64,000 bases of DNA, taken from the NCBI GenBank assembly GCA_965652295.1, contig CBFGTS010000006.1, positions 1-64,000 of the forward strand, read 5' to 3'. A program made the position numbers and the translations under genes. A model generated the notes under the pieces. It did no database searches and was not told the origin of the DNA. It worked only from the letters and a program-made list of their open reading frames with translations. Shown piece after piece: positions 21,999 to 54,506 of this stretch. Positions within the stretch are counted from its first letter, which is position 1. Each line of letters starts with the position of its first letter. This DNA comes from an uncultured Haloferula sp. (GTDB lineage: Bacteria; Verrucomicrobiota; Verrucomicrobiia; Verrucomicrobiales; Akkermansiaceae).

Positions 21999-22066
21999 GT
22001 TCTCCTCAGATCTTTCCACGACCCCCACCGCCTACGACCTCGCCGACCGGCTTCCGAGGGCTCTAG

Positions 22067-22133
22067 GGAGCGCCGATTGTAAAATCGGCTTCTGCGGCGG
22101 TTCGGAAGATGCCGATTTCACAATCGGCGCTCC
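22067..22133. repeat. REP-like inverted doublet
   Basis: GGAGCGCCGATTGTAAAATCGGC (22067-22089) and its inverted copy at 22111-22133, one mismatch; each arm is itself a hairpin. Confidence 0.85.
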
Positions 22134-23146
22134 ATGAGACACCCGCCGACTCCTTGGTTTCCGCCGACGGCGGTGATGATGGCCTTTTCCGCCTCGCCTT
22201 GATTCAAGGCATCGACCGCCGCCACGAGCTGCATGCCGGCGGAAGCTCCCATGGCTTCGCCGAGGAGCTTGCGGGTGGAAAGCCGCGGGCCGTTCCAGGC
22301 GATCGCTTGCTCGGGGGCGTCGAGGCGCGGGACGCCATTCCGTCCGTCGGACCAGAGCGTGGCGCCATCGTCGCTCGCCGCGAGTTCCGACCAGATGCGT
22401 GAGAGGGCTTTCGCCCGGTCCGGTTCGACGGCATAGCTGACGACATCGGGCACGGCGAGGAGTTGCGGACCCGCACCATCCTTCTCCAAAAGCAGCGCCG
22501 CCGCGCCTTCGGCGGGCAACATACGGGAATCGTAGTAGCCGAGCGCTTCGGCGCTGAGCCAGTCGGCCTCTTCGGGCGCGACGACGAGCACGGCATCGCA
22601 ATCGCCGCGGTCGAGCCACTCGGCGGCGAGGTCGAGGGCGATGAAGATCTCCGCGCCGTCGCCGATGATCGTGTCGTTCGGCGCGGTGCAGTTCGACATC
22701 GCGGAAAGGTGGCTGGACGGCGCGTTATAGACCGTTTCCGGGAAAAGGATGGGGCTGGCCACCGCGGGATCGGCGAGGACCTCGCCGTAGAAGCGGTTGG
22801 AGTAGTTCACGCAGCCGTTCATCATCGAGCAGATGACGCCGAGGCGGAGCTGGCCGCTGGACACCGCTTCGAGGCGCTCCGGTCCAAGGGCTTCGAGCGC
22901 GGCGGCGGCGGCGAACTTGCCGACCGAGCTGGCGCGGCGCAGGCGGGGGGATTTAGGCAGCAGGGAGCGATCGGTCATCGCCGGCACCTTGGCGATCGGC
23001 GTGCGGATGGTTTCTCCGGCCGTCGTCGTACGTTCGAGAAACGAGGGCTCGACCGGGTTTCCGGCGGCGAGGCATTCGCGCAGCGCGGACACGCCCCAGC
23101 CGGCCGGGGAAACGACGCCGATGCCGCTGATCGTGATCCGGCTCAT
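22118..23146 (-). CDS. Catalytically degenerate beta-ketoacyl synthase (chain-length-factor-like)
   Basis: KS N-terminus ISGIGVVSPAG and ASPILFPETVYNA; the active-site Cys motif is replaced by GDGAE and the His motifs are absent. Confidence 0.85.
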   Translation of the reverse strand: MSRITISGIGVVSPAGWGVSALRECLAAGNPVEPSFLERTTTAGETIRTPIAKVPAMTDRSLLPKSPRLRRASSVGKFAAAAALEALGPERLEAVSSGQLRLGVICSMMNGCVNYSNRFYGEVLADPAVASPILFPETVYNAPSSHLSAMSNCTAPNDTIIGDGAEIFIALDLAAEWLDRGDCDAVLVVAPEEADWLSAEALGYYDSRMLPAEGAAALLLEKDGAGPQLLAVPDVVSYAVEPDRAKALSRIWSELAASDDGATLWSDGRNGVPRLDAPEQAIAWNGPRLSTRKLLGEAMGASAGMQLVAAVDALNQGEAEKAIITAVGGNQGVGGCLMERRL

Positions 23147-29358: not shown

Positions 29359-30627
29359 ATGAACACCATCGTCACCGGTCTCCAATGGGGAGACGAAGGC
29401 AAGGGCAAGATCGTCGATTACCTCACCGAATCCGCCGACGTCGTCGTCCGCGGCCAGGGAGGAAACAACGCGGGCCACACGGTCATCGCCCGCGGCACGA
29501 AATACGTCCTCCACCTCCTCCCCTCCGGCATCCTCTGGGATGGCAAAACCAACGTCATCGGCAACGGAGTCGTGCTTGATCCCATCGGCCTCGTCGCCGA
29601 AATCGAACGCGTCGAGGCCCAAGGCGTTTCGATCACCCCGGAAAAGCTTCTCATCTCCGACCGCGCCCACGTCGTCCTGCCCCTCCACAAGGAACTCGAC
29701 GCCGCCCGCGAGGCCGCCCTCGGCGACCGCAAGATCGGCACCACCAAGCGCGGCATCGGCCCGACCTATGCAGATAAGGTGAACCGTTGCGGCCTGCGCG
29801 TCGCCGACCTGCTCGACGAGAAATTCGCGCGCGAGACCATCGCCCTGCGCACCGCAGACGCCAACGATATCCTCAAGCGCTTCGACCTCCCGACCTTCGA
29901 CGCCGGACAACAGGCCGACGAAATTTTCGCGGCCTTCGAGCGGCTCCGTCCGCACGTCTCCAACACCATCCCCGTCCTTCACTCCGCCTGGAAATCCGGC
30001 AAGGACATCCTCTTCGAAGGTGCCCAGGGAACCCTGCTCGACATTGACTTCGGCACCTTCCCCTTCGTCACCTCGTCCAACACCACCGCCGGCGGCTGCT
30101 GCACCGGCACCGGCCTGCCTCCTACCGCGATCGATCAGGTGATCGGCGTTTGCAAAGCCTACACCACCCGCGTCGGCGGCGGACCTTTCCCCACCGTGGA
30201 CGAAGGACTTTCGCAATATCTCCACGATCTCGGCCGTGAGTTCGGAGCCACCACCGGCCGCCCGCGCGGCTGCGGCTGGCTCGATGCCGTCCTGCTCCGC
30301 CAGGGCTGCATGGTCAACGGCACCACCGGCCTCGCCGTCACCAACCTCGACGGCCTCGACAACTACGAGACTCTTCGTATTTGCGCCGCCTATGAGATCG
30401 ACGGCATCCGCCACGACCTCGCCCCGGCCGACCGTCACGCCTGGGACCGCGCCGTGCCGATCTACGAGGAACTTCCCGGTTGGATGAGCGACACCACCGC
30501 CTGCACGAGCTACGAGCAGCTTCCGGAAAACGCCAAGGCCTACCTCACACGCCTGTCCGAACTCTGCGACACTCCGATCCAATTCGTCGGAGTCGGACCG
30601 GACCGCGATCAGACCCTGGTCGTGTGA
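29359..30627 (+). CDS. purA: Adenylosuccinate synthetase
   Basis: Motifs QWGDEGKGK, GGNNAGHT, GTTKRGIGP and GATTGRPR. Confidence 0.98.
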   Translation: MNTIVTGLQWGDEGKGKIVDYLTESADVVVRGQGGNNAGHTVIARGTKYVLHLLPSGILWDGKTNVIGNGVVLDPIGLVAEIERVEAQGVSITPEKLLISDRAHVVLPLHKELDAAREAALGDRKIGTTKRGIGPTYADKVNRCGLRVADLLDEKFARETIALRTADANDILKRFDLPTFDAGQQADEIFAAFERLRPHVSNTIPVLHSAWKSGKDILFEGAQGTLLDIDFGTFPFVTSSNTTAGGCCTGTGLPPTAIDQVIGVCKAYTTRVGGGPFPTVDEGLSQYLHDLGREFGATTGRPRGCGWLDAVLLRQGCMVNGTTGLAVTNLDGLDNYETLRICAAYEIDGIRHDLAPADRHAWDRAVPIYEELPGWMSDTTACTSYEQLPENAKAYLTRLSELCDTPIQFVGVGPDRDQTLVV

Positions 30628-30666
30628 CCAGAGCCGCCGGCCTCGGACTACAACGGTCCGGGGGAG

Positions 30667-30841
30667 TCAGCAACCCGGCGGTCGCGCGGCAACCGCCTTG
30701 CGGCTGCCTGAGGGGGGTACGTGAAGACCGTGTTCCCGTGCGAGGCACGGCACCTCGGGAATGAGAGGTGCCAGCGGACTCGGGGGCAATCCCTCGCATT
30801 CAACACTCGGGTCTTCTTCATGCGCACCGCCAGGTTGCTGA
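30667..30841 (-). ncRNA. Candidate structured non-coding RNA (family not recognised)
   Basis: 20-bp closing stem, nested stems and three hairpins; G-U wobbles and a GCAA tetraloop appear only on the minus strand. Confidence 0.6.
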
Positions 30842-30936
30842 AATTTGCTTTGGATTTGAATGGATGGGAGTTTCTTGATGACGGAGTCCGGAAAGAGCGC
30901 CTCCATGTTAGATACCTTGCTAGTCACAGATTAAAT

Positions 30937-31131
30937 CTATCGTTCGGAATGACTTGAAGGGTCCGAGGACCGCTCCCGCCCTGACTCCTCGGAGCCCAGG
31001 CGGCCGAGGAGGACTTCGACGCCATGCCGGATGGCCATGGCCCCCACTTCCGCTTTATCGAGTCCCAGCTGTTCCGCCAGATCTTCAAGTTTCTCGCCGA
31101 CTTCGTGAGTAATGTGGAGGTTCTTGATCAT
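30937..31131 (-). CDS. Small ribbon-helix-helix-like DNA-binding protein
   Basis: KNLHITHEVGEKLEDLAEQLGLDKAEVGAMAIRHGV shows a beta-alpha-alpha pattern. Confidence 0.6.
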   Translation of the reverse strand: MIKNLHITHEVGEKLEDLAEQLGLDKAEVGAMAIRHGVEVLLGRLGSEESGRERSSDPSSHSER

Positions 31132-31150
31132 CCCAGAATTGCATCCGCAC

Positions 31151-31196
31151 GATTACGCCGGCTTACGTAGTCTTTTTGACTACGGCGCGCAATACG
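31151..31196. promoter_or_regulatory. Putative operator between the divergent RHH genes
   Basis: CGTAGTC-TTTTT-GACTACG at 31166-31184; TACG recurs at 31154, 31164, 31181 and 31193. Confidence 0.55.
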
Positions 31197-31234
31197 GAAT
31201 TGGCGGAAATCCTGTTTTCCTCCACTTTTGCCGG

Positions 31235-31510
31235 GTGAACCCAAAGAAACGTCGAGTTTCCGCCCCCATCCGAATGGACCCTGATCTCTTGGAACACGTG
31301 AAGCTCGCGGCCGAACGGACCGGGCTGGCCCAAGCAGATATCCTGCGGTTGTGTCTGGCGATCGGTTTGGAGGATCTGCGGAAGCTGGACTACAAGATTC
31401 CTTCCGTGCTTTCCGAGGCCGCCGCCCGCCGTCCTCCCTCGTCCACGCGCTACGACGCGACGCCGTTTTCGAAAGACTTGAAGGTCGCGGAGCCCGATCC
31501 GGAAAGCTGA
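31235..31510 (+). CDS. Small ribbon-helix-helix-like DNA-binding protein
   Basis: PIRMDPDLLEHVKLAAERTGLAQADILRLCLAIGL; probable GTG start at VNPKK. Confidence 0.65.
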   Translation: MNPKKRRVSAPIRMDPDLLEHVKLAAERTGLAQADILRLCLAIGLEDLRKLDYKIPSVLSEAAARRPPSSTRYDATPFSKDLKVAEPDPES

Positions 31511-31607: not shown

Positions 31608-32318
31608 ATGGACTCCGATTCCCACACCCCCGCCCACATCGCCATTATCATGGACGGCAACGGCCGTTGGGCGAAGGAACGCGGGCTGCCGCGGCGCGAT
31701 GGCCACCGGGCCGGAGCCGAATCGGTCCGCGAGTGCGTCGAGGCCTGCAAGCAGCTCGGTGTCCGCTTCCTCACCCTCTACGCCTTTTCCTCGGAAAACT
31801 GGAGCCGACCGCCCGCGGAAATCACCGCGCTGATGGCGCTCTTGGAGCGGTTTCTCGATCAGAAAGCGGAGGAGATGATGAAGCAGGACGTGCGGCTCCA
31901 AGCGATCGGCCAGCTCGACCGTTTGCCTCCCAAAACCCGCAACAAGCTGGACGCCGCCATTTCCCGCACCGCGGACAACAGCTCGCTGACCCTCGTCCTC
32001 GCCCTGTCCTACGGCTCCCGTGAGGAAATCACCGAAGCCGCCCGTTCCATGGTGCGGGACGCGGCGGAAGGGCGTCTCGCGCCGGACGATGTCACCCAGG
32101 ATCTCTTCGCCTCCCGGTTGTTCACCGCCGGTCTCCCCGATCCCGACCTGCTGATCCGCACCTCCGGCGAGCTGCGCGTCTCCAACTTCCTGCTGTGGCA
32201 GATCAGCTACGCGGAAATTGTCATCTTCAAGAAATACTGGCCGGACTTCAAACAGGCGGACCTCTTCGATGCCGTGACGGAATACCGCCGCCGGCACCGC
32301 CGCTTCGGCGGCCTTTGA
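31608..32318 (+). CDS. uppS: Isoprenyl transferase (undecaprenyl diphosphate synthase)
   Basis: Motifs HIAIIMDGNGRWA, YAFSSENW and IRTSGELRVSNFLLWQ. Confidence 0.97.
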   Translation: MDSDSHTPAHIAIIMDGNGRWAKERGLPRRDGHRAGAESVRECVEACKQLGVRFLTLYAFSSENWSRPPAEITALMALLERFLDQKAEEMMKQDVRLQAIGQLDRLPPKTRNKLDAAISRTADNSSLTLVLALSYGSREEITEAARSMVRDAAEGRLAPDDVTQDLFASRLFTAGLPDPDLLIRTSGELRVSNFLLWQISYAEIVIFKKYWPDFKQADLFDAVTEYRRRHRRFGGL

Positions 32319-49955: not shown

Positions 49956-50160
49956 ACGGACATCCCATGCGGCCCGCCCGGTTCCGGCAAGCGGTCATCC
50001 ACCACTCCGGCCGGAAATTTTTCCTCCGGAAAGTTTGAACGACGCGCCACCGCAGGGGTCTTACCCCATTGAAAACCGCGCTTGCGCAGTTTTCATGTAA
50101 GGGTGAACAGCAGTTGTCAGTCCACCGTGCCCTCCGGGGCTGGAGGATGGGCAACTCTCC

Positions 50161-50200
50161 GCCGCCAGGGAGTGGGTGCTCCCTGGCGGCAACTTTTTTT
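50161..50200 (+). terminator. Strong intrinsic terminator with no annotated plus-strand gene upstream
   Basis: GCCGCCAGGGAG-TGGGTG-CTCCCTGGCGGC (perfect 12-bp stem) followed by AAC and T7. Confidence 0.8.
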
Positions 50201-50442
50201 GAAGTGCCTGCCTCCGATTTGCCGAGGCGTTGAACGCCCGCTCAGGGAGGCATCGGAGCTTGCGCAGCCCTCGGACGGATGGACATCCCGCCACCCCATC
50301 CCTTCCGTCCTGAAAATCCCGTCCTTCCAGCCCTCATTCTCCCGGTAGCCCTCCTCCGCAATCACCCGCCGACATAAGGGTTGATGCCCCGCCCGCGGCT
50401 CCCTTTACTTTCCGCCCGCGCGCAAAGACGCGCCTCTTTCGC

Positions 50443-54048: not shown

Positions 54049-54064
54049 AGGCTGTCTCCCCTAC

Positions 54065-54179
54065 CAGTGGCATGACCGTCCCGGTCATGAAAGGATAAGG
54101 CCGCAACGACTTGGCAGCCGACAGGAACTCCTCCGGCGTGAGAATTCCTACGTTCACGACCGGGACGGTCGTGCCACTG
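54065..54179. repeat. GTGG-type REP doublet
   Basis: CAGTGGCATGACCGTCCCGGTCATGAA (54065-54091) and an inverted copy at 54153-54179 with compensatory changes. Confidence 0.85.
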
Positions 54180-54194
54180 ACAGGCTGCCACGTC

Positions 54195-54506
54195 CTACTC
54201 CCCGAAGTCCCACTCCTTCGGTCGCTTCGGCTTGAAGCGCGTGCGTCCGCTCGCAGCCTGCCTCAGCGGATTGAAGACCGGATCCATGCCGTTCGCTTTC
54301 AGCTCCCACACCCATTCCATCAGCTCGCCGAGCCGACCCTTCGGAAAGCCGCGCTCCTTGAAATAGGTCAGGTATTCCGTGGGCAGATCGTAAATCGGAT
54401 AACCGCGCGGCGGGTGCTCCTTCGGCCCGTATTTCCCAAATGGCATCCGCGTCCGGCCGATCTCATTCAGCAGGTTCCGGAAGTCCTCACGGTCAATCTC
54501 GTTCAC
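54195..54506 (-). CDS. DUF3820-family protein
   Basis: MPFGKY...DLPTEYLTYF..GFPKGRLG..ELKANG. Confidence 0.85.
   Translation of the reverse strand: MNEIDREDFRNLLNEIGRTRMPFGKYGPKEHPPRGYPIYDLPTEYLTYFKERGFPKGRLGELMEWVWELKANGMDPVFNPLRQAASGRTRFKPKRPKEWDFGE

Follow-up and report, generated by a model that had tools for sequence, protein, structure and literature searches.

The purA-uppS locus

The window, by which we mean the whole 64-kb stretch of DNA analysed here, comes from the Haloferula genome G000 and carries between purA and uppS a compact insert made up of two divergent ribbon-helix-helix (RHH) genes and a strongly folding RNA element. The features discussed below are the following.

29359..30627, plus strand: purA, left flank (PF00709), convergent with the RNA
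30644..30660, minus strand: small separate hairpin downstream of the RNA, in the predicted fold
30667..30841, minus strand: structured RNA of 175 nt, recognised by folding, homologs in two genus relatives and covariation
30712..30717, minus strand: C-run 2, RNA positions 125-130, in a single-stranded linker; starts at 125, 128 and 129 in the three copies
30782..30786, minus strand: C-run 1, RNA positions 56-60, in a hairpin loop; starts at 56, 56 and 58 in the three copies
30822..30841, minus strand: 5' arm of the closing stem P1, pairing with 30667-30687
30937..31131, minus strand: RHH2, 64 aa, cro-position gene on the same strand as the RNA, with a putative RHH fold judged from position and pattern
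31164..31192, minus strand: predicted RHH2 promoter, TTGCGC-17 nt-TACGTA
31167-31183: palindromic operator GTAGTC-N5-GACTAC over the RHH2 promoter spacer, recognised by sequence conservation
31235..31510, plus strand: RHH1, CI-like RHH repressor without a protease domain, with weak Pfam RHH matches and a probable GTG start (alternative ATG at 31274)
31608..32318, plus strand: uppS, right flank (PF01255)

Upstream of the RNA on its own strand lies RHH2, followed by the divergent RHH1 and then uppS, while on its other side the RNA converges on purA and lies 40 nt past the purA stop codon (40-110 nt in the source genome and in G021 and G032, the two genus relatives with RNA homologs). Short contigs of one sequencing run, whose type is unrecorded, match the window exactly over 30746-30896, 30992-31142 and 31134-31287 and add no variants.

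We took 30 purA loci from the 38 matches in the genus, and in 26 of them uppS lies directly downstream of purA at a distance of about 60-190 bp; most genus-mates are without the whole insert. The RHH pair and the RNA occur together at three of the 30 loci (G000, G021 and G032) and in the same order of purA, RNA, RHH2 and RHH1, with the RNA starting 11-105 nt past the last upstream gene; the purA locus of G025 holds an unrelated insert of 7 kb. A tree of purA and uppS from the 30 genomes places the three carriers in a four-genome group (support 94/88) together with G008, which is without the insert, and a topology in which the carriers were held monophyletic was not rejected (p-AU 0.089). This history is explained most simply by one gain and one loss, repeated insertion being also possible. 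In G021 four ORFs that are absent from the other two carriers lie between RHH2 and the RNA, and the RNA is the sole downstream element common to the three modules. These extra ORFs (L066:1496-2786; 89, 100, 84 and 137 aa) had no Pfam or PHROG match at E<0.05. Judged by eye, two of them resemble lipoproteins, another is GYF_2-like and the last is a membrane protein; they are possible candidates for superinfection-exclusion cargo. On the far side of purA, between it and carA, the window has a GxxExxY / PD-(D/E)XK gene (PF13366, 28913-29308) that is flanked by alike short inverted sequences, their translated flanks MNANG and IRVHSR reading in opposite directions, and an inverted repeat resembling these flanks fills the purA-uppS spacer of G022 and G023.

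Predicted fold of the RNA

The minus strand of 30644-30841 folds with -108.5 kcal/mol (z = -7.25), none of 200 shuffled sequences being equally stable, and its centroid is the same as the minimum-energy structure, whereas the plus strand of the same region folds less well (z = -3.44). Across the three copies the minus strand is more stable than the plus strand by 10-28 kcal/mol when folded as RNA, and with DNA parameters this preference shrinks to 1.8-6.5 kcal/mol. With GC-corrected energies the 175-mer has a residual z of -3.48, beyond any of the 2554 fixed windows of 175 nt in the 64 kb, where the best value is -3.07; in this comparison the ends of the 175-mer were chosen and those of the windows were not. 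The next most stable stretches lie at about 22000-22230 and 54050-54230 on the minus strand and at 50050-50280 on both strands (residual z -2.4 to -3.1).

In the predicted fold the parts of the 175-mer follow one another as P1, a 5-nt A-rich linker, an irregular three-helix arm with two terminal hairpins, a 14-nt C-rich linker and a 3' hairpin. In G000, P1 is formed by 30841-30822 with 30687-30667 and has 20 bp with one bulged G. The arm is built from the inner stems 30816-30810/30729-30723 and 30806-30802/30734-30730 and a UGCGAG/CUCGCA helix (30798-30793/30745-30740), and it ends in a hairpin at 30792-30776 with the loop GCCCCCG and a second one at about 30773-30748 with eight perfect Watson-Crick pairs. 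The 3' hairpin (30708-30688) has a 9-bp stem. A sequence-only reading of this DNA had described the closing stem, inner stems and hairpins as well as the further hairpin at 30644-30660, and all of these are reproduced by the minus-strand minimum-energy structure. The GCAA tetraloop that it had placed on this strand appears as an alternative only, the 3' hairpin carrying an AAG triloop in the lowest-energy fold. Its C-rich single-stranded segments are indeed predicted to be open in the G000 copy (unpaired probability 0.91-1.0), but in G021 and G032 the C-runs are only partly unpaired. The hairpin found 3' of the RNA differs in each homolog, and a U-tract terminator is present there in G032 but not in G000 or G021.

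Conservation and distribution

Diverged homologs of the RNA are present in two of the 34 other genus genomes, G021 and G032, with one copy per carrier, and the model built from the three sequences (R1) was positive in 3 of 35 genomes when run on the genus. They came to light through synteny only and not through BLAST, which found the RNA in 0 of 60 relatives. Pairwise identity of the copies is about 53-58% (100/189, 104/187 and 107/184 in the alignments), and the two homologs fold with z = -5.01 and -5.89. All 17 of the 17 aligned P1 pairs are standard in all three sequences, five of them having changed on both sides and three on one side, with nine invariant. Moreover, for the 23 modelled pairs none of 500 shuffles attained the observed pairing or covariation score, and the modelled pairs were 94% paired against 20-51% in slid controls; these counts come from three closely related sequences and a structure derived from the same sequences, and so are not independent and are supportive rather than a statistical proof. 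The sequence-only reading had also stated that mismatches on the plus strand become G-U pairs on the minus strand, and in fact all 7 of the 7 DNA mismatches within the outer 16 pairs of P1 are minus-strand G-U pairs (1+4+2 in the three copies, one being present in all three and one in two).

The interior is less uniform. Its similarity between G000 and G032 and between G000 and G021 exceeds that of 300 of 300 shuffles. For G032 and G021, 33 of 300 shuffles reach the observed similarity, so that it does not exceed chance. A hairpin of 8-11 bp is found at positions 69-98 in all three copies with little sequence identity, and G000 and G032 share an identical GCGNG helix, which one compensatory change allows in G021 as well. 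G021 favours another interior fold, by 9.5 kcal/mol over the G000-like core, and RNAalifold predicts a different interior. The interior fold is thus only partly conserved, and the closing stem alone is strictly kept. The element is very probably a conserved RNA structure on the minus strand that is under selection.

Searches beyond the genus were made with R1, a weak three-sequence model, and with exact patterns, and could overlook remote homologs. When GTDB genomes were scanned with a pattern, eight loci were returned, of which two are true homologs and lie in records of Haloferula sargassicola (L103) and Haloferula luteola (L102). Among 151 family genomes R1 gave full matches in G000 and G021 only, with one extra match of 81 nt (E=0.009) that we judged by inspection to be spurious, and among 151 order genomes it gave two partial matches (E=0.02 and 0.08), the one at L136 being judged spurious in the same way and the other being L135. 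Pattern scans of viral sequences gave 0, 2 (without model support) and 0 loci, and blastn of phage and plasmid collections found nothing significant. R1 likewise found no match in RHH-bearing prophage, phage and metagenome loci (26, 14 and 7 sources, with four control loci lacking RHH genes among the 26), and stem and folding scans gave no convincing counterpart.

A ribbon-helix-helix version of a phage switch

The two genes upstream of the RNA have relatives in Verrucomicrobial prophages. Over 58 aa, RHH1 shares 60% identity with the N-terminal part of a 218-aa repressor with RHH and peptidase S24 domains, which is encoded in a G017 prophage together with a phage lysozyme, and related RHH loci have a tyrosine integrase in G016 and Bro-N in G081. 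Its close relatives P0004-P0019 show 46-67% identity. Among the best 150 of 157 relatives the short forms that lack S24 are the majority, and because most relatives are short in this way RHH1 need not be truncated. An AlphaFold model of RHH1 was of low confidence (pLDDT 60). RHH2 had no Pfam match at E<=0.1 and gave no BLAST alignment with the cro-position RHH protein of G017. The operator palindrome is invariant in G000, G021, G032 and the G017 prophage, and is also found in the viral contig L149. Facing RHH2 is a promoter-like site of the form TTGCNN-16/17-TACNTN with its spacer under the operator; in all three modules the predicted -10 box is missing its last T. A comparable site (TTGCCA-16-TATTCT) belongs to the host 6S-like gene. 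A scan with the sigma-70 consensus returned no promoter, and the sole terminator-like match overlaps the operator region.

Both RHH genes are under purifying selection, with a dN of 0.26-0.29 against a dS of 1.1-3.1 for RHH1 and dN also below dS for RHH2, and changes at their synonymous sites approach saturation. The three modules retain neither an integrase nor any other phage gene. We conclude that the divergent RHH pair with its shared operator is a cI/cro-like switch of Verrucomicrobial prophages that has here been orphaned, RHH2 being assigned to its role by position only. A Verrucomicrobial prophage and phage family that has two divergent RHH genes as its switch is seen at L119:5100-14430 (G017), L120:7250-19900 (G016), L149 and L150.

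Relation to known RNAs and mobile elements

In accordance with the sequence-only reading, which could not match the RNA to tRNA, SRP, tmRNA, RNase P or a riboswitch, Rfam gave no match at gathering score in the window, and at gathering and E-value thresholds it returned nothing meaningful for any of the three copies. There is no tRNA or tmRNA in the window, and the genome's own SRP, RNase P and tmRNA genes are on C5, C14 and C2. That reading's proposal of a novel non-coding RNA holds in the sense of an uncatalogued and conserved minus-strand structure with a covarying closing stem, as modelled here. Its suggestion of a phage-type antisense or immunity RNA is borne out as far as the phage link goes, through the prophage-derived repressor pair, but not as regards the C4/P4 immunity type. 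Like the C4/P4 CI RNAs (RF01695), the RNA is a structured RNA within a phage immunity region; unlike them it is about twice their size, the C4 model is silent at the locus in all three genomes, and complementary sites are missing from the module, where no conserved 8-mer complement was found and a matrix of cognate against non-cognate pairings was unspecific. Blocking of RHH1 translation by the RNA was also rejected, as RHH1 of G021 alone came within the top 3-4% of 2214 background regions and those of G000 and G032 failed.

Several other candidates were discarded. A retron RNA is contradicted by the locus being without a reverse transcriptase, the two that the genome encodes being unlinked (L145:712-2928 on C3 and L142:318-1775 on C35; group II intron-like by inspection). 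A small-protein gene fails since the reading frame, although open in the G000 and G032 copies, is stopped in G021, the differences at codon positions 1, 2 and 3 number 9, 13 and 14, and a protein search returned the self-match only. Likenesses to SECIS, attC and bridge RNA were discarded by inspection.

In the literature that we searched no description of the RNA was found, and none of the search results described regulatory small RNAs for this group. The main text of one further source (bioRxiv 10.64898/2026.10.21.760802) does not mention Verrucomicrobia or Haloferula; an unnamed cluster in the supplements of this source or of large RNA-motif surveys could hold the motif.

A candidate regulatory RNA under the switch

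Taken together, our folding, comparative and search results identify a real, uncatalogued and narrowly distributed structured RNA that is tied to an orphaned phage switch. As to its function, we tentatively prefer a small regulatory RNA that is made from the switch promoter, cut at the closing stem by RNase III, and acts on other mRNAs through its C-runs. On this reading the RNA would be the last element of the RHH2 (cro-side) operon and be transcribed from the RHH2 promoter, with RHH1 at the operator repressing the operon. In G021 a promoter of its own would lack intergenic room because the stem starts 11 nt past the last upstream stop, from which we infer transcription from the RHH2 promoter. 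The layout of the RHH2 operon and the RNA is compatible with processing from a repressed transcript, and the source genome encodes RNase III, an enzyme with a preference as to substrate length, which would excise the RNA at the 17-22 bp closing stem. The released RNA might then pair in trans with other mRNAs through its two C-rich stretches. These can pair with many G-rich sites, and the C-run segments showed no cognate-specific pairing with the RHH1 or RHH2 start regions in the three genomes. The source genome is without Hfq. The host would thus have retained the phage on/off switch and would be using it to gate the RNA, like E. coli Qin with its DicA/DicC pair and DicF.

According to bioRxiv 10.1101/2023.04.14.536235, the defective prophage Qin keeps the cI/cro-like pair DicA/DicC, its repressor is without RecA-triggered self-cleavage, and DicF is processed from a repressed polycistronic transcript, RNase III yielding a 190-nt form. 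Judged from sequence, the Haloferula module appears to share with the Qin arrangement so described a cI/cro-like repressor pair of prophage origin, here divergent and with a shared operator, and a repressor that would lack RecA-triggered self-cleavage. However, the repressors here are of the ribbon-helix-helix type, and the RNA stands on the P_R-like, cro side of its switch, dicBp being P_L-like; unlike DicF as presented there, the RNA has a long terminal stem that closes it, it has no Rfam similarity to DicF or any other family, and its host lacks Hfq. The Haloferula RNA may work like DicF by analogy, without being a member of its family. A second parallel is offered by RsaE, FsrA and RNAIII, Gram-positive small RNAs whose C-rich unpaired motifs are able to pair with ribosome-binding sites, the target pairing of RNAIII being unaffected by Hfq (PMC4152353). 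The C-rich motifs of our RNA, predicted to be unpaired in the G000 copy, resemble those motifs, but there is no relation in sequence or covariance model, the phylum is another one, and the trans pairing of these RNAs can serve here only as an analogy. The related prophage and phage loci that we scanned are without the RNA, so it may have become attached to the switch once this had been inserted, or have an origin independent of the switch.

Alternative explanations

The alternative that survives best, although we think it unlikely, is that the element is a cis-acting folded 3' end of the cro-side mRNA, which stabilises, processes or stops the transcript and insulates it from the converging purA transcript, there being no separate RNA. 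Its place shortly past the last upstream gene and at a short distance from the purA stop in all three genomes fits such a role, as does the restriction of strict conservation to the closing stem, and there is a U-run directly 3' of P1 in G032 and a downstream hairpin in all three. However, a 175-nt multibranch fold far exceeds what a terminator needs, the two C-runs and the GCGNG helix are kept at fixed interior positions, and the sequence of outer P1 is itself kept, as its nine invariant pairs of 17 show.

We consider it improbable that the RNA arose independently as a 6S-like decoy for RNA polymerase, which would be made when the switch flips and would dampen housekeeping-sigma transcription. 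The RNA does resemble 6S RNA (RF00013) in its size of about 180 nt and in its topology: it has a closing stem, an asymmetric centre whose 5' strand is rich in A and whose 3' strand is rich in C and bears a hairpin, and a long arm at the apex. Strands rich in A and in C are likewise present in the host 6S-like RNA. The unpaired central strands are about 16 and 15 nt in G032, as such a decoy would have them, but the 5' one is just 5 nt in the G000 fold (the 3' one being 14 nt), and none are predicted in G021. The 6S alternative named in the sequence-only reading itself fails: RF00013 gives no match at the locus at E<=10, a model built from six genus 6S-like RNAs scores no more than 5 bits there against 221.6 bits for the host copy, and the genome has a separate 6S-like gene that is well conserved, with a mean column identity of 85% across six species against the roughly 53-58% between the copies of our RNA. 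This likely 6S RNA of the genome lies at G000:C11:139774-139959 (L002:1501-1686, minus strand) beside an engB/yihA-like GTPase gene, and its score of 36.6 bits falls short of the 46.4 that Rfam sets as cut-off. Sub-threshold 6S matches of 34-42 bits with strong sequence conservation were present in five of five genus-mates tested, and annotation at the Rfam gathering level would overlook 6S in this genus.

We find it quite improbable that the element is a decayed relic, or a sponge or decoy RNA that binds a protein and has its C-runs by chance. Its fast divergence and variable interior, and its loss or absence in G008 within the carrier group, are in line with this, but pure decay is at odds with a P1 that is fully maintained while synonymous sites of the RHH genes are near saturation. 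We are more doubtful still of a DNA-level element, such as a miniature inverted repeat, a REP/REPIN-like hairpin, a recombination site or a single-strand origin from an inserted element: it would account for a near-perfect terminal inverted repeat at the edge of the insertion and for the small strand preference under DNA parameters, but the element is single-copy in the source genome by blastn and nhmmer, which rejects MITE, REP and REPIN families, and is single in each carrier, no target duplication is visible at its ends, the arm mismatches are all G-U on one strand, and the module is without integrase or transposase. The least probable proposal, to which we give very little weight, is a tripwire in which the domesticated RHH repressor, operator and cro-like module serves for nothing but gating one RNA, so that a related phage or its antirepressor, by disabling RHH1, would set off production of an RNA shaped like 6S, which would tie up RNA polymerase or shut down translation; if true, such a defence or dormancy device, RNA-only and switch-triggered, would be of a kind undescribed in PVC bacteria.

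For the small regulatory RNA that we prefer, the reach is limited to three species so far and the regulatory role is predicted. The locus nevertheless offers a compact and testable example in which a phage lysis/lysogeny switch was kept under selection after the loss of the remaining phage, and it shows that Verrucomicrobial prophages have a cI/cro switch of the ribbon-helix-helix type, with a defined operator. Retention of the switch alone appears to have recurred. Further orphaned RHH remnants without adjacent phage genes were seen in the family and order, at L071:1246-2027 (G245), L072, L073 and L077-L080, and in G245 three small RHH-like ORFs stand in a row.
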